Source: Candidatus Allobutyricicoccus pentlandensis (GTDB lineage Bacteria > Bacillota > Clostridia > Oscillospirales > QAMX01). From it: a stretch of DNA of 34,818 nt. The notes under the pieces were generated by a model. The model did not search any database, was not told the origin of the DNA, and was given only the letters and a program-made list of their open reading frames with translations. The position numbers and the translations under genes are program-made. Each line of letters begins with the position of its first letter. The stretch's first letter is position 1. This document shows, in pieces, positions 25,308 to 32,844 of this stretch. The stretch covers positions 1 through 34,818 of the forward strand of contig CAJFPH010000088.1 of NCBI GenBank assembly GCA_904398645.1, read 5' to 3'.

Positions 25308-25375
25308 GATTCCGACTCTATGCCGGTTATTTTTCTTGATCGGGGAAAAACTTTTGGTAAGATAGATATATGCCC

Positions 25376-25406
25376 TTGACTTTGACGTCGCGTCATAGCC
25401 TATACT
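25376..25406 (+). promoter_or_regulatory. MerR-type promoter/operator (19-bp spacer with dyad)
   Basis: TTGACT-N19-TATACT with the dyad TGACG-TCG-CGTCA (25383-25395) inside the spacer. Confidence 0.85.
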
Positions 25407-25429
25407 TAATATACGGAGGAGATGATACC

Positions 25430-26419
25430 ATGAAATATACGACGATCAGCCAGGTGTCTCGCGGTTTCAACGTTTCAACCCGTACCCTGCGATACTATGA
25501 GGAGCTTGGCCTTTTAAAAAGTGCACGGCGGGAAAATTATGCATACCGCGTATATGACGAAGAGGCCGTAGCCCGCCTGCGTCAGATTCTGCTGCTGCGT
25601 TGTCTTCGCATTCCACTACGCCATATCGCTGAATTACTTCAGAATCGGGATACAGCCCTGGCCGTCGAGATTTTTCAGGAAAACATCGCGCACTTAGAGC
25701 GCGAAATTCATGCATTAGAGACAATCCGGCATGCAACAACCGTACTCTGCGAACAAATCCAGGCACGCGCAGGAACGTCGCTTAAACCGGAATTGTTGAC
25801 AGAAGAGGATCTTCTTGGCATTTCAGAGTTTTCATCTCTTTCAAGATCAAACCGTAGGGGGACACTGACTATGAATGACCTGACGCATGCAAATGATGCA
25901 CTGACCCGATTTGAAAACACACGAATCATTTACGTCCCGCCCGCAACCGTTGCGGCATTTCAGAGCGGGGGACCGGAGCCGGAAGATGTGGCGGGCGCGG
26001 CGATCAACCGGTTTATCGTGACGGAAAATCTTTTTGCACGTAAGCCGGATTACCGACTTTTTGGTTTTAATAACCCAAGCCCTACACAGGAAAGCGAGGC
26101 ACATGGATATGAGTTCTGGGTGACGGTCCCGGATGATATGGAAGTGCCGCCTCCTTATGAGAAAAAACGGATGCCGGGCGGACTTTACGCCGCACATTGC
26201 ATCCGAATGGGAAATTTTGAAGAATGGGGACCGTTTTGGCAGTGGATACAAAAAAACGACGTATGCGCGTACGAAGAACGCGAACCGCATGGGATGTGCG
26301 GTTCCTTAGAGGAACACTTGAATCCACAAACAGCCTACACAGGGCTCACACCGGAAACCTGTGAAATGGCAGAGTTCCGGCAACTTGATCTACTGGTACC
26401 GGTCAGGTTGAAACGGTAA
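25430..26419 (+). CDS. MerR-family regulator with C-terminal GyrI-like effector-binding domain
   Basis: ATG 25430 after GGAGGAG; 'TISQVSRGFNVSTRTLRYYEELGLL..YRVY'; coiled coil; C-terminal 'RLFGFNNP..YEFWVTVP..MPGGLYAAH'. Confidence 0.9.
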   Translation: MKYTTISQVSRGFNVSTRTLRYYEELGLLKSARRENYAYRVYDEEAVARLRQILLLRCLRIPLRHIAELLQNRDTALAVEIFQENIAHLEREIHALETIRHATTVLCEQIQARAGTSLKPELLTEEDLLGISEFSSLSRSNRRGTLTMNDLTHANDALTRFENTRIIYVPPATVAAFQSGGPEPEDVAGAAINRFIVTENLFARKPDYRLFGFNNPSPTQESEAHGYEFWVTVPDDMEVPPPYEKKRMPGGLYAAHCIRMGNFEEWGPFWQWIQKNDVCAYEEREPHGMCGSLEEHLNPQTAYTGLTPETCEMAEFRQLDLLVPVRLKR

Positions 26420-27269: not shown

Positions 27270-27827
27270 TTATTCAACGAAAAACTCGAGATAGTCAACC
27301 GCTCCATTTCGGATACCACAGGCAAATACACAGCCCTCGCTGGAGTATTCCACAAGCAGGGGCGTGCGCCCATCATAGAAAATCACGCCATAGTCCCCGC
27401 CCGTTTCATAAGTGCCGTAAAGCAGGCGGTAATGTGCGCCGTCCGGGCTCGTATACATCGTATCGTCGCCCGCAGAGGCAAAAAGCGGAATCAACTCCTC
27501 AATCTTCATACCGATGGTAACGCCACGCGGTGCCTCAAGCGCAGTATCGTACAGGCAGACATAGTAAACATAACCGCTTGCCGCTTCTGCCCGGAATGAA
27601 TTTTTTCCATAAATAAACTCATTGGCACTCAGGCCCTGAAAACTTGTGATATTTTCTTCATCGGGTTCGCCATAGGTATCGAAAATTTCCGACTCTGTCA
27701 GCGCAAAGATATGGGCAAGCTCTTCAAAGGAAAATTCCGCAGCGTCCGCTTCAACCGGGAGATATGTGCAGGAAGAGAACAGCAGTAAAAAAAGCGCCGT
27801 CATGGCAAAAGAAAAGGTCTTACGCAT
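27270..27827 (-). CDS. Hypothetical acidic lipoprotein
   Basis: ATG 27827 after GGAGGT; signal peptide with lipobox LLFSS-C; 185 aa; stop 13 nt upstream of the SDR start. Confidence 0.75.
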   Translation of the reverse strand: MRKTFSFAMTALFLLLFSSCTYLPVEADAAEFSFEELAHIFALTESEIFDTYGEPDEENITSFQGLSANEFIYGKNSFRAEAASGYVYYVCLYDTALEAPRGVTIGMKIEELIPLFASAGDDTMYTSPDGAHYRLLYGTYETGGDYGVIFYDGRTPLLVEYSSEGCVFACGIRNGAVDYLEFFVE

Positions 27828-27984: not shown

Positions 27985-28018
27985 AAAGAGAGCCGCATAC
28001 GAAATGCGGCCCTTTTTT
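27985..28018 (-). terminator. Probable terminator of the P-type ATPase-like gene
   Basis: GCCGCAT-N5-ATGCGGC hairpin with A/T-rich flanks just after the stop codon. Confidence 0.6.
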
Positions 28019-28034
28019 ACTTGAAATACAGTTT

Positions 28035-31000
28035 TTATTCTTCTTTCTTTTCAGAATTATTGCTTGTCTCTGCCGCCGGCACAGGAAGGCCGTTTCCGTC
28101 TCCATTGTCCGGAACCGGTTCAGCGGCCGCACCGGCATTTTCGTGAGTAGATACATCCTCCGTTGCGCCGGGCTTTTCCCGTTCAGGTTGCGCCTCAGCA
28201 GTCTGTTTTTCCGCCGCTTCAGGCGTTTGCGGAGCAGATTCCGTCTTACTCTCCGCAGTACTGCCCGCTGCGGGAGTAAAAGGAAGCCCGCCTTCTAAAA
28301 CTTCTCGCGGCAAGTTGGCTATAATGTCCTCATATGGATGCAGTTCCTCGGGCAATTCAGAGAGCACATCCGTCGATTTGGGAGCCTCTCTCGTTTCAAT
28401 ATTTACGCCTGGCAAGCGGGTTGTCTCCGCAAGTGCTTCAGCCGGCATCCCGGTCTTCTCCCCGTCATCTGATGCATCAGAGGCCTGTTCCTCGCCAGCT
28501 TCCAGTGCAGGGACAGACACATCCGCAGGCTCCTCAGCCTTTTCCGTACGTTCGGCCGATCGCGCGGCTTTTTTTGCAGCGCGTTTCTCACGCCGTGAGG
28601 GTTCCACATCCTCCTGGGTCGGATCGTCTCCCTCAAATTTTTCAAAGAGCCGCTCTGTGAAGCTTCCTCCGGACGGGGATTTCTCCTCAATGCGCTTTTC
28701 GCGGATACTACGTGCAAGGATGGGACGTAGCAGGCCTTTGTATAACTCACTCCACAGCAGAGAAAGCGCGGCCGCGCCGATTGCCATAAGCCACTCAACA
28801 AAACCCACGGCCGTCGTAGCAAAAACGTTATGGAAGACAGGAACATAAACTGCGGCAACCAGCACTGCCGCAACGCCCAGGGTGACGGCAACAAGCGCGC
28901 GGTTTGAAAATACGCCGAGCCGGATTAAACTTGTGCGTTCAGAACGGCAGGAGTGCGCAAGCGCGAGCAGTGAAAGTGTCATTGTAATAAAGGAAGCCGT
29001 CTTCGCATACGTTTCCAGCTCTGCCTCGGAAAGCCCGGCCGCAGTCGCGCGACTATGCGCAATAAAGTAAGAGGCGACAATCAGAATGGTAGGGAAAAAC
29101 GCCTGAATAAAGGACGACACAATCGTAAGACGGCCATAAGCGGGCGCCGCAGCGGCATGTGGCGGACGGCGCATGATATCCCGCTCCCCCGGTTCACTCG
29201 CAATGACGAACGCCGGAATTAACGCCATAAAAACATTTAACCAGGCCAGGTGCAAAATGGAAAACTGAACCGGCGGCGTTGAAACCAGCAGAGCAAAGAC
29301 GGAAAGCATCTGCGCCATCAAGCAGAGAAAAGCAAACCCGCAATAGGAACGCAACGCCGTAAAACCACGGCGGCTTTCTTCTACCGCATGGACAATATCC
29401 GCGTATCCTGCATCCTCCAGCACCATATCCGCGCTGTCTCGCGTAAGCTCGGGCGCATTGGCCCCCACGGACACGCCTATATCTGCGGCCATAAGCGCCG
29501 GCGCATCGGACGCGCGCGTGCCTGTGACGGCGACAGTGCCGCCAGCGTGTTTCAGTGCGGTGACGATTGCACGTTTTTCAAGCGGTGAAATGTTCGCGCA
29601 GACACGCGCTTTCCGCATTTTTTCGCAGAGTTCGTCAAGAGGCATCGCGTCAATTGCGCCGCCTTCAAAAATTTCTCCGGACATGCCCATGGAAAGGGCC
29701 AGATCGGAAGCGGTCGCCGGGTCATCTCCTGTTACAATTACGGTGCGGATACCGGCGGCAGCACACAGGTTAAAAGCAGAGACAGACTCTGGCGTCGCAC
29801 GGTTTTCAACGCCGCAAAGCCCGGCAAAGACCAAATCGCGCTCGATCTCGTCCACGTCAAAGCGGGCCGGCATTTCGGGGAACTCACGGTAAGCGACGGC
29901 AATCATACGTAGTCCCTGCTCAGCCAGACGGTGGGAAACCTCAAGAAGTTGTTTTCTGGTACGGTCGGTCAGCGTATAAGCCGCTCCATCCAAATGAATA
30001 GCGGTGGAGCGTGCAATGATAAGTTCCGGCGCACCCTTTGTATAGGCAACCGCCTGCCGGCCACGTTTATGGATGGTCGTCATACGGCGGCGTTCCGGTT
30101 CAAAGGGAAATTCCGCTACACGCGGGAACATTCCAAGAACATCCGAGCGAATCAGTCCGGCCTTGGCGGCCAGTGTCACCAACGCAGCCTCCGTCGGATC
30201 TCCGCGATAGGTCCAACGCCCGGAAAGTTCTTCGATATCCGAGTCTCCGCACAGTGCACCGCCGATCAATGTAAGCGCCAAGCTGCGGTTTCGGCTGACA
30301 TCGATTTCATGCCCGTCGGCATCCAAAAAACGCCCATCCGGCGCATAGCCGCGGCCCCGCACGTCAATGAGGTGTCCACCCGTCCAGACTGCGGTAACCG
30401 TCATCTCATCAGAGCTGATCACACCCGTTTTTTGCGCAAGGATGGTGTCGACAGACGAGAGCCTGTCCATGGCGTCAAGAGATTTTACAACGGTACCCTG
30501 CATGGCCAGGCGGCGGATCGCGGCGGCGGCAAGCGCAGCCTCCGTAATACAGAAGCTGGAGGGAATTGCGGAGACCGCAAGCGTAGTGGCAAGCAGGATG
30601 GTTCCCGTTAAATTTTCAATGCTCATCGCCTGTACCAGCAGGCTGCAAAGCAAAACAATAACGCTGCAAATGATTCCAACAACGGCAGCCCTCTTGTTTT
30701 GCCGGGCAATTGTCCGGTTTAACATGCTGCGGCGTTCGTGTTCGTAGGGAGACCGGACGGCAAACGGCGCCGCAATATCGCCTCCGGTTGCAACGACAAC
30801 CGCACGACCACTGCCGGAACGCACGACCGTACCCGTATAGCACATGTTGAGATGTGTGGAAAGATCCGTCCCCTCTCCGGCAACCGCAGCGGCATCTTTC
30901 GGCGCACCCATGAATCCGCCGGGCAGGATGCTCTCGTCCATAACCAGGTTAATGCTCTCTACAAGGCGCATATCGGCGCCTATAATATCGCCTGCGCGCA

Positions 31001-31415
31001 GTTGTACCAAATCACCGGGAACCAGCAGCGAAGTCTCAATAATTTCAGGGATTCCATCTCGCACCACAGTCGTCATTGGTGCGGTTACCGCCGCAATCGA
31101 CGTCAGGACACGGCGAATTTTGGCCAAAGAATAACTCTTGAGTCCTGCCGTAACCAACGCGCTGCCAAACAACACGGCGGCAGATATATAGTCTCTTGTC
31201 AGCAGGCACAACACGGCGGCAGCGGTCAAAACAGCGGCAGATACCATCATGCCGCTGATACTTCCGGCCGCCACCTGCCTGTCGGGCTTTTTGACGGTTT
31301 CATTTACACCATAGCGTTTGCGGCGGTTGGCGGCTTCCCGTGCGGAAATGCCGGCGGCCGCGTTTGTATCAAGCTCGCGTATAGTTTCTTCCACGCTTTT
31401 TTCATACCATGCCAT
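28035..31415 (-). CDS. P2A-type (Ca2+-ATPase-like) P-type ATPase homologue with degenerate catalytic motifs and a long acidic C-terminal tail
   Basis: RBS GGAGG; 'LVPGDLVQL..GD...AD.RL', 'GDPTEAAL', 'FPFEPERRRMT', 'KGAPE', 'GLRMIAVA', 'VTGD', 'DAPAL..ADIGVSVG', 'EPGERDIMRRPP'. Catalytic motifs are altered (see findings). Confidence 0.9.
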   Translation of the reverse strand: MAWYEKSVEETIRELDTNAAAGISAREAANRRKRYGVNETVKKPDRQVAAGSISGMMVSAAVLTAAAVLCLLTRDYISAAVLFGSALVTAGLKSYSLAKIRRVLTSIAAVTAPMTTVVRDGIPEIIETSLLVPGDLVQLRAGDIIGADMRLVESINLVMDESILPGGFMGAPKDAAAVAGEGTDLSTHLNMCYTGTVVRSGSGRAVVVATGGDIAAPFAVRSPYEHERRSMLNRTIARQNKRAAVVGIICSVIVLLCSLLVQAMSIENLTGTILLATTLAVSAIPSSFCITEAALAAAAIRRLAMQGTVVKSLDAMDRLSSVDTILAQKTGVISSDEMTVTAVWTGGHLIDVRGRGYAPDGRFLDADGHEIDVSRNRSLALTLIGGALCGDSDIEELSGRWTYRGDPTEAALVTLAAKAGLIRSDVLGMFPRVAEFPFEPERRRMTTIHKRGRQAVAYTKGAPELIIARSTAIHLDGAAYTLTDRTRKQLLEVSHRLAEQGLRMIAVAYREFPEMPARFDVDEIERDLVFAGLCGVENRATPESVSAFNLCAAAGIRTVIVTGDDPATASDLALSMGMSGEIFEGGAIDAMPLDELCEKMRKARVCANISPLEKRAIVTALKHAGGTVAVTGTRASDAPALMAADIGVSVGANAPELTRDSADMVLEDAGYADIVHAVEESRRGFTALRSYCGFAFLCLMAQMLSVFALLVSTPPVQFSILHLAWLNVFMALIPAFVIASEPGERDIMRRPPHAAAAPAYGRLTIVSSFIQAFFPTILIVASYFIAHSRATAAGLSEAELETYAKTASFITMTLSLLALAHSCRSERTSLIRLGVFSNRALVAVTLGVAAVLVAAVYVPVFHNVFATTAVGFVEWLMAIGAAALSLLWSELYKGLLRPILARSIREKRIEEKSPSGGSFTERLFEKFEGDDPTQEDVEPSRREKRAAKKAARSAERTEKAEEPADVSVPALEAGEEQASDASDDGEKTGMPAEALAETTRLPGVNIETREAPKSTDVLSELPEELHPYEDIIANLPREVLEGGLPFTPAAGSTAESKTESAPQTPEAAEKQTAEAQPEREKPGATEDVSTHENAGAAAEPVPDNGDGNGLPVPAAETSNNSEKKEE

Positions 31416-31561
31416 GAAAACGATCCTCCATTCAAGCGTATCACATGAAGATCCGATATAGTCAGGCCGCGAACATACGGCACTTTATCAAAAGTTCACA
31501 TAAGCTGCGAAAAAAGGCCCGGATAAGGACGCCCTTCTCCGTACAGAACATACTACTTTTT

Positions 31562-31590
31562 ATGATACCATACTCTTTTTTCGTTTTCAA
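31562..31590 (-). promoter_or_regulatory. Sigma-A promoter of the P-type ATPase-like gene
   Basis: Minus strand TTGAAA-N17-TATCAT with extended TG. Confidence 0.65.
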
Positions 31591-31665: not shown

Positions 31666-32844
31666 ATGACGCACGATATTTTGCACCGTCCGCTTTCTGA
31701 GCTGACGAATATTTCCTTTTCCTGTGCCTGCGGACACGAGCACCGCATTCAAATAGGCACGCTTGCCGTCGGCCCCGGCGCATCGTCACAAGTTGCCGGC
31801 GCGGCCCGGGCCTATGCCGCGCGGCGTATTCTGCTTGTTGCAGATGTGCATACATTCGAAGTACTTGGCAAGTCCGTTCTGGAGCAGCTGAAGGGCGCCG
31901 GACTGGATACCGACGCCTATGTTTTTCCCGACCAGCACTTACATCCGGATGCGTTTGCCGTCGGGCGGCTGTTTCTTGAGGCCTCGGACGAAAAAGCGGA
32001 CTACGGGTTGTTGATCGCAGTCGGGTCCGGCGTACTGAATGATATCACGCGGCTTGTCAGCGGACGCCTTCGTCTGCCGTACTTTATTGTCTGCACCGCA
32101 CCGTCTATGGACGGTTATGCAGGCAGTTCCTCTCCCATTGTCTGCCGCGGCACAAAGCTGAGTTTTTATACGCATTACGCCGACGCCATCTTCGCCGATA
32201 CGGATATCATGAGCCGTGCGCCGCGCGAGATGATAGCCGCCGGCTTTGGCGACGTGTTGGGCAAATATACGGCATTGGCAGACTGGGAGCTCGGTCAACG
32301 GGAACGCGGCGAATATCGCTGCGCACTGATTTCTGATTTTATGCGCGGTGCGCTTGAGGCCTGCGCCGCCTCTGCCGATGGCGTGGCGGCTCGCGATCCG
32401 GCCGCCGTCGGCAGACTGACGGAAGCGCTGATTCTTTCCGGTATGGCGATGGGATTGGCGGGCGTTACGCGCCCGGCCTCTGGCTGTGAACATCATATTG
32501 CGCACTACTGTGACATTGACGCAGTGGCAAACGGGCGGGATTATCCGCTTCACGGCGCGTCCGTCGGCGTAGCGGAGCTTGCCATGCTGCGATTTTACGA
32601 ATTTGCACGCCGCGACGGCTTGACAGATCTGGAAACGCCGCCGGCAGACACCGTGCGGGAACTGCTGCGAAAAGTTGGCGCGCCCGTACGCCCTTCTGAA
32701 ATCGGGATTTCCACTGAACTTTTTTCACGGGCAATCCGTGAGGCCATGCATTTACGTCCACAATACTCCATGTTAAAGCATGCGGCGGCTGCGGGAAAGC
32801 TGGACGAATACGCCGACTCCGTCGTTGAGGAACTGTGCAATTGA
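31666..32844 (+). CDS. sn-glycerol-1-phosphate dehydrogenase (AraM/EgsA-like)
   Basis: RBS AAGGAG; 'CACGHEH', 'AVGSGVLNDITR', 'TAPSMDGY', 'AAGFGDVLGK..ALADW', 'RPASGCEHHIAH', 'HGASVG'. Confidence 0.9.
   Translation: MTHDILHRPLSELTNISFSCACGHEHRIQIGTLAVGPGASSQVAGAARAYAARRILLVADVHTFEVLGKSVLEQLKGAGLDTDAYVFPDQHLHPDAFAVGRLFLEASDEKADYGLLIAVGSGVLNDITRLVSGRLRLPYFIVCTAPSMDGYAGSSSPIVCRGTKLSFYTHYADAIFADTDIMSRAPREMIAAGFGDVLGKYTALADWELGQRERGEYRCALISDFMRGALEACAASADGVAARDPAAVGRLTEALILSGMAMGLAGVTRPASGCEHHIAHYCDIDAVANGRDYPLHGASVGVAELAMLRFYEFARRDGLTDLETPPADTVRELLRKVGAPVRPSEIGISTELFSRAIREAMHLRPQYSMLKHAAAAGKLDEYADSVVEELCN

Follow-up and report, generated by a model that had tools for sequence, protein, structure and literature searches.

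Can a P-type ATPase homologue be kept by selection once its residues for phosphorylation and ion binding are gone, and what might such a protein then do? This question is raised by a gene in contig CAJFPH010000088.1 of Candidatus Allobutyricicoccus pentlandensis (assembly GCA_904398645.1), whose 34,818 nucleotides are the whole stretch of DNA analysed here, hereafter the window. On the minus strand, positions 28035..31415 (stop codon included) hold an unbroken reading frame of 1126 codons with no internal stop. It encodes a catalytically dead homologue of P2A-type ATPases, as judged from the open reading frame (ORF), Pfam and NCBIfam models, and alignment to the Listeria Ca2+-ATPase LMCA1. An earlier inspection of the letters alone (the sequence-only reading) had described an intact 1126-codon ORF, which is borne out. 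Of the bounds it gave for the gene, 28730..31415, the upper end stands and the lower end does not: the gene continues to 28035 as a tail of 226 amino acids (aa).

P-type ATPases are defined by an aspartyl-phosphate, which this protein and its close relatives (the dead clade) have given up. From the residues present, we are highly confident that the dead protein is selected, non-pumping and non-phosphorylatable. Whether it still binds nucleotide is, on the pocket residues that it retains, an evenly balanced question. Our preferred reading, which we consider probable, is a pseudo-pump derived from a tail-bearing P2A ATPase, maintained by selection and acting without turnover as a nucleotide-binding membrane scaffold or sensor.

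Family membership and fold

The window protein belongs to the P-type superfamily, scoring 155.7 bits with the NCBIfam model TIGR01494 (cut-off 62.3). Four Pfam families match above their cut-offs, namely Cation_ATPase_N, E1-E2_ATPase, Cation_ATPase and Cation_ATPase_C, the last at 3.2e-35. The HAD Hydrolase domain reaches 24.9 bits and stays under its cut-off of 26.4. The top NCBIfam model, TIGR01522 (PMR1-type Ca2+-ATPase), gives 372 bits where 798.3 are required, and the SERCA-type equivalog TIGR01116 gives 292.2 bits against 703.4, so both lie well under the scores asked of a member.

The best match among solved structures is LMCA1 (6zhf), with an E value of 2.8e-88 over residues 4-893 (HMMER), followed by human SPCA1. 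Matches of the LMCA1/SPCA1 type range from 2.8e-88 to 1e-84 across residues 4-897. An AlphaFold2 (AF2) model of the core (residues 1-905, alignment of 73 sequences) has a mean predicted local distance difference test score (pLDDT) of 87.2 and a predicted template modelling score (pTM) of 0.84. Its query TM-scores are 0.82-0.88 to structures of SPCA1a, SERCA and Na,K-ATPase, best on E1-type states; the alignment behind the model is dominated by working pumps, so these values show fold compatibility only and not a preferred state. In the alignments and in this model, the predicted ten-helix P-type ATPase fold is retained, with the actuator (A), phosphorylation (P) and nucleotide-binding (N) domains and the membrane helices M1-M10.

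Replaced and retained motifs

Substitutions were placed by HMMER residue alignment to LMCA1 (6zhf) and by MAFFT alignment tables. All motif coordinates refer to the minus strand, and residue counts refer to the 13 other sequences of the dead clade. The phospho-acceptor motif DKTGT is replaced by QKTGV (aa 328-332; 30420-30434), in which the Asp has become Gln, with codon CAA at 30432-30434. Nine dead-clade sequences have Q in this column and four have P, whereas all 121 canonical relatives (100%) have D. The final Thr of the motif (T332) is V in 12 and A in one, and K329, T330 and G331 are kept. The dephosphorylation loop TGES of the A domain reads PGGF (aa 165-168; 30912-30923). Here T165 is P and E167 is G throughout (13/13 each), and S168 is F in 12 and V in one, giving LPGGF in 12 sequences and LPGGV in the remaining one.

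Two further P-domain motifs are altered. The DPPR motif is replaced by ENRA (aa 537-540; 29796-29807), with D538 changed to N in 13/13 and R541 lost. GDGVND is replaced by GTRASD (aa 632-637; 29505-29522), which retains the last Asp but neither the first Asp nor the Asn. Across the dead clade, D633 is T in 10, S in two and N in one, N636 is S in nine and A in four, and D637 is kept.

The membrane ion site has changed as well. In M4, PE(A/G)L is replaced by PSSF (aa 285-288; 30552-30563), losing the Ca-binding Glu and keeping the helix-breaking Pro (P285); E286 is S in seven, A in five and V in one. In the segment spanning M5 and M6 (29223..29324), the ion-ligand positions of S-N-x-x-E in M5 are replaced by CLMAQ (29310-29324), and those of M6 by WLNVFMA (NVFMA for NLVTD, within 29223-29243). 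N699, T730 and D731 are lost across the dead clade; E702 is partly kept (E in four, A in four, Q in two, L in two, V in one), as is N727. The window protein accordingly lacks the phosphorylatable Asp, the TGES Glu and the GDGxND and DPPR motifs of the Mg2+/phosphate site that mark a P-type ATPase. It also departs from the P2A cation-ligand set (M4 Glu; M5 Asn, Glu; M6 Asn, Thr, Asp), columns that we take to be cation ligands from the SERCA literature.

The N domain shows the opposite picture. Its nucleotide-pocket motifs are retained within 30024..30203, with GDPTE at 30189-30203, FPFEPERRRM at 30081-30110 and KGAPE at 30024-30038. G405, D406, P407, T408, E409, F438, M445, K460, G461, A462 and R503 are each at least 90% kept in the dead clade. 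The TGD motif is present as VTGDD (29721..29735), G563 and D564 being kept and T562 being T in 11 and S in two, and the GLR motif is also kept. The residues expected of a nucleotide-binding protein (GDPTE, the Phe of FPF, KGAPE, the Arg of LR, TGD) are therefore all there in the sequence, consistent with a putative pocket.

These alignments recover every replacement proposed by the sequence-only reading (TGES, PEGL, DKTGT, DPPR, GDGVND, M5 and M6) at its coordinates, and likewise every motif that it listed as retained (GDPTE, FPFEPERRRM, KGAPE, GLR and TGD). Clear homology to an enzyme family is combined with loss of catalytic residues, and to judge from its sequence the window protein is in this respect a pseudoenzyme.

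The dead clade and its distribution

A word-indexed search returned 14 clusters, including the window's own, at 47-100% identity to the window protein, with cluster P0003 at 90%. Their lengths are 1080-1369 aa, apart from one piece of 777 aa. Below this group the identity falls abruptly to 34%, where ordinary Ca2+-ATPases of about 900 aa begin. The Asp-less homologues that the sequence-only reading proposed to collect thus do form a clade: all 13 other clusters lack the DKTGT Asp, with QKTG(V/A) in nine and PKTGV in four. The PEGL Glu is likewise missing from all 13, and GDGVND, deprived of its first Asp, reads G(T/S/N)(R/Q/M)A(S/A)D. Canonical relatives come no closer to the window protein than 35-36% identity, the nearest being the tail-bearing forms L018-L020 of sister genera described below, and within the clade no close orthologue with canonical motifs was found.

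The clade is rare. In an exhaustive search of 1.84 billion representatives, only three belong to it, after which the score drops from 828 to 487 bits. Among the best 150 representatives, 139 are canonical, three dead, three half-dead (a group described below) and five near-canonical, deviating at one motif. Canonical was defined by loose criteria, as the presence of TGE, PE, DKTGT, TGD and GDG together.

Within the 35 genomes of the family, the dead form is present in all four genomes of the window's genus and in one of the two genomes of a second genus. The match is covered by open frames in all five. The other genome of the second genus (87% complete) has only a canonical match at 29% identity, and 21 of the 35 family genomes give no match to the window protein at E <= 1e-100. 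Beyond these two genera, the known spread of the clade consists of metagenome sequences without taxonomic placement. The clade is small and comes from uncultured bacteria of the chicken gut.

Public records label clade members as pumps. In two sources they appear as 'Ca2+-transporting ATPase' and as 'cation-transporting P-type ATPase [Ruminococcaceae / Oscillospiraceae bacterium]'. A metabolic reconstruction based on such labels would include a pump that is unable to pump.

One cluster deserves separate mention. P0008 (777 aa) and P0273 (272 aa) belong to one 90% cluster and lie on the same 58,109-base contig, and another member of the cluster has 1083 aa. They may represent a single dead-ATPase gene that is frameshifted or broken in that assembly.

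Purifying selection and sequence reliability

The core of the gene (codons 1-900) was compared with its two closest congeners by the Nei-Gojobori method. Nonsynonymous divergence (dN) is 0.105 and 0.116 and synonymous divergence (dS) 1.8 and 1.5, giving an omega (dN/dS) of about 0.06-0.08, which is only rough because dS is saturated. DNA close enough for an unsaturated dS was not found: two metagenome scans gave only a 44% relative (L027), and a genome scan returned only two loci, both already covered.

Constraint differs between domains. dN is lowest in the two P-domain parts (P1 0.03-0.05, P2 0.07-0.09), the A domain (0.07-0.08) and the N domain (0.07-0.14). It is 0.10-0.15 in the membrane segments (M3-M4 and M5-M10: 0.105-0.152, two closest congeners) and 0.13-0.23 in the N-terminal region. 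In the tail it rises to 0.33-0.48; a separate estimate for the tail, 0.30-0.34, is three times the core value.

Other genes from the same genome pair (G000 and G002) serve as controls. In order of increasing dN they are MiaB (0.041), an Fe-ADH-like gene (0.075), the canonical P2A paralogue (0.084), RlmL (0.085), the dead ATPase core itself (0.105), an SDR gene (0.129), a lipoprotein-like ORF (0.195) and a MerR-type regulator (0.322). The dead core is therefore constrained about like ordinary enzymes, roughly 25% more loosely than the working paralogue.

Variation within the species points the same way. Public runs from ten studies contain the stretch, nearly all labelled chicken gut metagenome. 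Contigs from three runs of other studies (X4, X5 and X8), each covering parts of the stretch, are at least 99% alike to the window. They carry seven single-nucleotide polymorphisms (SNPs) in the gene, six of them synonymous (codons 308, 387, 427, 610, 881 and 920); the only replacement, A1067V, lies in the tail. By site count, 25% of single changes and 34% of transitions in this gene are synonymous, which makes six of seven improbable under neutrality (binomial p 0.0015, or 0.0076 on transitions only), seven sites being a small sample. The prediction of purifying selection is upheld by the low omega, by a core dN near that of the live paralogue and by these polymorphisms. With 14 clusters and two genera, selection appears to have acted in several lineages, and in this second respect too the window protein is a pseudoenzyme, as far as sequence comparison can tell.

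The same contigs speak to the accuracy of the sequence. Dead-state codons are covered without listed difference for Q328 (X4), PGGF (X4 and X8) and GTRASD (X4, X5 and X8), so the substitutions are not sequencing errors. Transcription is suggested by a 195-nt contig (30593-30787) from one metatranscriptome library, identical to the window, for which carry-over of DNA is possible; this run (X20) covers 3 of 30 bins of the stretch.

A decaying gene, or an assembly or sequencing artefact, would in either case have no function. Such an origin would agree with a core dN of 0.105 against 0.084 in the live paralogue, which is somewhat faster, and with the related cluster in which one copy is possibly split. 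We find it scarcely credible, however, given 1126 open codons here, open frames in all five family genomes with the dead form, motifs conserved in their dead state (LPGGF in 12/13, N538 in 13/13), the omega of about 0.06-0.08 with six of seven SNPs synonymous, and contigs from three other studies at least 99% alike. Readings of the dead ATPase gene as a pseudogene, an artefact or a recoded gene were all rejected.

Loss focused on catalysis and ion binding

The distribution of the losses was examined in an alignment of 137 rows (A3), comprising 121 canonical, 13 dead and three half-dead sequences. The 164 columns conserved to at least 85% in the 121 canonical relatives were scored, a column counting as kept when it is at least 90% conserved in the dead clade. 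In the 13 dead-clade sequences, 79 columns are kept, 46 partly kept and 39 lost. The losses are concentrated: the set of 16 catalytic and ion-site columns has lost 14, whereas 25 have gone from the remaining 148 (Fisher p 2e-8). The set of 12 nucleotide-pocket columns has no loss (p 0.07), 10 being kept and two conservatively changed (K614R and T562S).

The lost columns include T165, E167 and S168 (TGES), E286 and P289 (PEGL), D328 and T332 (DKTGT), D538, P540 and R541 (DPPR), D633, G634, V635 and N636 (GDGVND), N699 (M5) and T730 and D731 (M6). Further losses are D669 and N670 of the DDNF hinge, Q96 and E97 at the end of M2, and T214 and G217 in the A-M3 link. The kept columns include the M4 Pro, D637, K329, T330, G331, G563 and D564. 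Since the replacements are themselves fixed (P165, G167 and N538 in 13/13, F168 in 12/13), the pattern is that of a changed function and not of decay. The contention of the sequence-only reading that loss falls on catalysis and ion binding, unlike random decay, is thus supported by the column counts.

The same columns bear on two other explanations. One is that the protein remains an enzyme or transporter with unorthodox chemistry, using another nucleophile or hydrolysing ATP without a phosphoenzyme. K329, T330, G331, TGD, D637 and the N-domain pocket are kept, and these might hold ATP close to where catalysis once took place. The first Asp of GDGVND, a Mg2+ ligand, has been lost, however, together with the TGES Glu, the Asp and Arg of DPPR, D669 and N670. 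The nucleophile column is Gln in nine and Pro in four of 13, so no single chemistry is conserved there, and we regard such an activity as extremely unlikely.

The other explanation is that the membrane domain has turned into a passive channel or facilitator, for which no phosphorylation cycle would be needed. M1-M10 are retained and constrained (dN 0.105-0.152), Cation_ATPase_C matches at 3.2e-35, and a palytoxin-channel form of Na,K-ATPase (9vj0) is among the fold matches. The ligands along the pathway, in contrast, are now mostly hydrophobic or small residues (E286 to S/A/V, N699 to L/G/M, T730 to M/L/I, D731 to A/S), which favours a filled site over an open one. We consider a channel very unlikely.

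Graded relatives and paralogues

Three forms of the protein occur within one bacterial family and make a ready comparative set. The first is a canonical tail-bearing P2A (L018, L019 and L020; genera g5 and g8). It resembles the dead form in its M(A/E/D)WY(E/K/N)KS start and its acidic DPT(Q/L) tail. Unlike the dead form, it keeps TGES, PEGL, DKTGT, DP(A/P)R, TGD, GDGVND, SCNIGE and NLVTD, its tail lacks the second tail motif described below, and the Fe-ADH-like gene is not adjacent. Each of these three genes is the sole P2A match in its genome.

The second form is a half-dead clade (L021-L025, genera g6 and g14; P0123, P0124 and P0130), in which the phospho-acceptor Asp survives although the motif around it drifts (DKTGT, DMAGT, DKSGT, DKTGF, DRTGT). 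Like the dead clade, it carries the DPTQ tail and has lost the Glu of both TGES (ITGSRS and others) and PEGL, along with Asn and Glu in M5 and Thr and Asp in M6. Unlike the dead clade, it keeps the first GDGVND Asp in most members, has TGE or TAE for TGD, and bears shorter tails without the second motif.

In a quick maximum-likelihood tree (35 rows, 906 columns, midpoint root), the dead clade (8 rows, stem 0.84) is sister to the half-dead clade (8 rows, stem 0.5), with a Shimodaira-Hasegawa-like approximate likelihood ratio test (SH-aLRT) value of 99. L018-L020 fall outside both. Given the long stems and the midpoint root, the order of events is a deduction from this tree. The losses shared by the dead and half-dead clades fit a two-step order.

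The window genome carries other P-type ATPases. A fully canonical P2A paralogue of 878 aa, with all motifs, lies on contig C28 and is not linked to the dead gene; this is the kind of active paralogue that the sequence-only reading had suggested looking for. Heavy-metal-type pumps are also present, and the other P-type ATPase loci are canonical where readable. Genomes with degenerate tail-bearing forms mostly hold a second, canonical P2A, which fits relaxation after redundancy.

Such a paralogue raises the explanation that the dead protein is a non-catalytic membrane partner of an active P-type ATPase, for example the C28 P2A, and tunes its activity or location. The canonical pump in the window genome and the frequent company of a canonical P2A in degenerate-form genomes agree with it, and the title of a preprint presents MgtA as a dimeric P-type ATPase. 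A C28-type paralogue is present in only two of the four genus genomes, however. It was not found, with the window query or with TIGR01494, in G001 (93% complete) or G003 (94%), both of which have the dead gene, and where both genes exist they are unlinked. An obligate partnership, or regulation of the paralogue as proposed in the sequence-only reading, is thereby weakened, and we consider the partner explanation unlikely.

The acidic tail

After M10 the protein continues as an acidic C-terminal tail of 226 aa (901-1126; 28038..28715, minus strand), predicted to be disordered from its sequence and the full-length model. Over the 221 residues counted (906-1126), the net charge is -28, with 41 Glu, 31 Ala and 21 Pro. 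Tail lengths are 202-481 aa in the dead clade, 115-130 aa in the canonical tail-bearing form and 66-139 aa in the half-dead form. A Protein Atlas search with the tail gave no usable match.

Two linear motifs stand out. Tail motif 1, DPTQE (28611..28625, minus strand), lies within F-x-x-F-E-G-D-D-P-T-Q-E, of which F924, F927 and D931-Q934 are invariant in the dead clade. Of 268 proteins examined, 15 carry DPTQ beyond residue 800: 14 records from the dead clade (the window protein twice) and the half-dead P0124. The other ATPases, about 250, lack it. DPT(Q/L) stands about 45-55 residues past M10 in the dead, half-dead and canonical tail-bearing groups, L018-L025 included. As these alignments indicate, the acidic tail with its DPTQ motif is older than the catalytic losses.

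Tail motif 2, LSELPEELHPYEDIIANLPREVLEGGLP (28281..28364, minus strand), is conserved in only part of the dead clade. Its pattern, L-S-x-x-P-(D/E)-E-L-x-x-Y-x-D-x-x-A-x-L-P-x-E-x-L, is kept down to 47% identity. It is present in P0003, P0004, P0005, P0009 and P0012-15 and absent from P0006/L015, P0007 and P0010/P0011/L016. A local helix is predicted at this motif (1023-1032) in a poor full-length AF2 model. In the tail of L015/P0006, a P-E-V-E-T-like repeat run stands where motif 2 would be. The tails of L016, P0010 and P0011 end in E-G-Q-L-S-x-D-x-x-D-L-P-A-P-V-E-E-D-x-E-L-A-A-L-L-E-E-F-G-E.

The prominence of the tail suggests an explanation in which the pump body is a mere ten-helix anchor and the polyanionic tail does the work, for instance by buffering cations, by forming a polyelectrolyte brush or by offering a docking platform. 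In that case the headpiece residues would be structural, with no nucleotide bound. A tail two to four times longer in the dead clade than in canonical or half-dead tail-bearing forms, its net charge of -28 and its two conserved linear motifs speak for this, but within the protein the A, N and P domains evolve most slowly (dN 0.03-0.09) and the tail fastest (0.30-0.34). Moreover, 12 of 12 pocket columns are kept or conservative, more than an anchor should need, and several members lack motif 2. We therefore give the anchor explanation little credence and retain the nucleotide-binding scaffold or sensor as the preferred reading.

Proposed role

Under the preferred reading, the ancestor would have been a tail-bearing P2A Ca2+-ATPase of the LMCA1/YloB/PMR1-like kind. 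In a first step, the ion ligands and the TGES Glu would have been lost, a state common to the Asp-keeping sister clade. In a second step, the phosphorylation and Mg2+ sites would have gone, and the tail would have grown from about 115-140 to 200-480 residues. Formation and breakdown of the aspartyl-phosphate, catalytic Mg2+ coordination and membrane cation binding would then all be absent from the present protein. ATP or ADP may still bind the N-domain pocket, through GDPTE, the Phe of FPFEP, KGAPE, the Arg of GLR and TGD. Headpiece closure driven by the nucleotide could alter how the acidic tail and its two linear motifs face a cytoplasmic partner. SERCA mutants without the charge at the phosphorylated Asp bind ATP more tightly, a property that would suit a sensor.

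Several points weigh against this reading. The AF2 core model was built from an alignment mostly of canonical pumps and says little on the predicted dead state. A full-length AF2 run on the 13-sequence clade alignment has a mean pLDDT of 49.3 and shows no docked tail, a model too poor for docking to be read from it. All dead-clade relatives are metagenome-assembled, and one of their clusters possibly includes a broken copy. dS is saturated in every pair, which leaves the omega values rough. The SERCA roles of the scored columns were taken from the literature and not computed, and the sets of 16 and 12 columns were chosen by the analyst. Nucleotide binding is deduced from conserved residues, whose retention folding could also explain. 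The sister grouping of the dead and half-dead clades joins two long stems on a quick, midpoint-rooted tree. RNA support for the dead gene amounts to the one identical 195-nt contig, which is weak and may reflect DNA carry-over. Finally, no operon partner was found, the gene being apparently monocistronic among housekeeping genes.

If nucleotide is still bound, the protein would provide a natural counterpart to the non-phosphorylatable mutants with which pump states are trapped, and it would offer a test case for the re-use of large membrane machines. A wider view is held only tentatively: one family of uncultured gut Clostridia may keep a series that leads from pump to pseudoenzyme. It would start with a working tail-bearing Ca2+-ATPase, pass through an Asp-keeping form without ion binding or dephosphorylation, and finish with a form whose phosphorylation site is gone too and whose tail has expanded and acquired a new linear motif. 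This end product would belong to a new class of bacterial scaffold or signalling proteins, with an inert, ATP-occupied headpiece gating a partner-recruiting tail.

Relation to known systems

The closest well-studied relatives are the bacterial P2A Ca2+-ATPases of the LMCA1 (lmo0841; 6zhf, 9euq and 6zhh) and YloB type, and eukaryotic SPCA1/PMR1 (7yag and 8iwp). They have the same domain order and ten helices as the window protein, and the predicted AF2 core superposes on E1 states of SPCA1 with TM-scores of 0.82-0.85. Features shared with LMCA1 and SPCA1 include the N-domain pocket, TGD, the M4 Pro and the L6-7 loop. Unlike LMCA1-type pumps, the window protein lacks the catalytic and M4-M6 ligand residues and has the 226-aa acidic tail.

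A parallel exists among eukaryotes in P4GC, the P4-ATPase-guanylate cyclase of alveolates and stramenopiles. There, DKTGTLT is described as essentially lacking in Cryptosporidium, and the LDGET motif as losing homology in P4GC-beta, piroplasmids and others (PMC13466520). The likeness lies in degenerate DKTGT and A-domain Glu motifs in some lineages with the protein retained. P4GC differs in being eukaryotic, of subfamily P4 and fused to an output enzyme, whereas the window protein is bacterial, P2A and stand-alone, with no catalytic domain attached. PcrP is reportedly another protein of the HAD family with a non-catalytic role.

No bacterial Asp-less or non-catalytic P-type ATPase was found in the full-text literature searched, subscription journals lying outside its scope. 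By term search of a 2023 review of open P-type ATPase questions, 'nonfunctional', 'inactive' and 'lost the' do not occur in it, and 'pseudo' occurs once, in a species name (PMC10654040). Within a well-characterised protein family, the dead ATPase represents a new variant, one without catalysis.

Flanking elements and gene neighbourhood

Upstream of the gene, a sigma-70-like promoter match (TTGAAA-17-TATCAT, with TG before the -10) lies at 31562..31590 on the minus strand. It agrees with the consensus at 10 of 12 positions and is a consensus match only; the region contains six promoter-like sites of this kind where 3.4 are expected. The putative 5' leader of 141 nt (31416..31556, minus strand) has a minimum free energy of -43.3 kcal/mol (z -2.41), and in this fold the ribosome-binding site (RBS) is partly paired. 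A short hairpin followed by a six-U run is seen in the leader. The RBS, GGAGGA, lies eight bases 5' of the ATG (31424..31429, minus strand). Past the gene, 25 bases beyond the stop, a G+C-rich hairpin GCCGCAT/ATGCGGC (27992..28010) is A-rich before and TCTCTTT/T-rich after, and is a candidate two-way terminator. Of the control elements named in the sequence-only reading, the RBS is read directly in the sequence, and the promoter and terminator stand as consensus-type matches.

Neither the gene nor its flanks match an Rfam family at E up to 1, so a riboswitch-controlled leader is unsupported. This candidate was rejected, the leader folding only mildly better than shuffles (z -2.4).

The neighbours of the dead ATPase encode HtpG, RsmI, MutS, MiaB, a MerR/GyrI-like regulator, an SDR, a lipoprotein-like ORF, Fe-ADH_2, RlmL and an aldo-keto reductase. 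No Clp gene is among them. The Fe-ADH_2 gene (31666-32841, plus strand), which is glycerol-1-phosphate-dehydrogenase-like, is divergent from the dead ATPase. With 66-89% identity it holds this position in all four related loci with enough flank (L011, L012, L016 and L017), and hence in both genera. No other neighbour stays adjacent in the two, and the gene is not found beside the canonical or half-dead relatives. We read the adjacency as inherited synteny and not as a functional link.

On the downstream side lies the lipoprotein-like ORF (27273-27827, minus strand, from the Met of MRKTF), whose signal-peptide-like start ends in SSC and which belongs to no Pfam family. Two congeners have a counterpart of 69-77% identity in the same downstream position. 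It has a promoter-like site and an RBS of its own, so the dead ATPase gene looks monocistronic. The MerR-type regulator (25370-26416, plus strand) carries a Cass2/GyrI-like effector domain and is the fastest-evolving gene of the neighbourhood, with 58% identity and a dN of 0.32 to its counterpart in G002.

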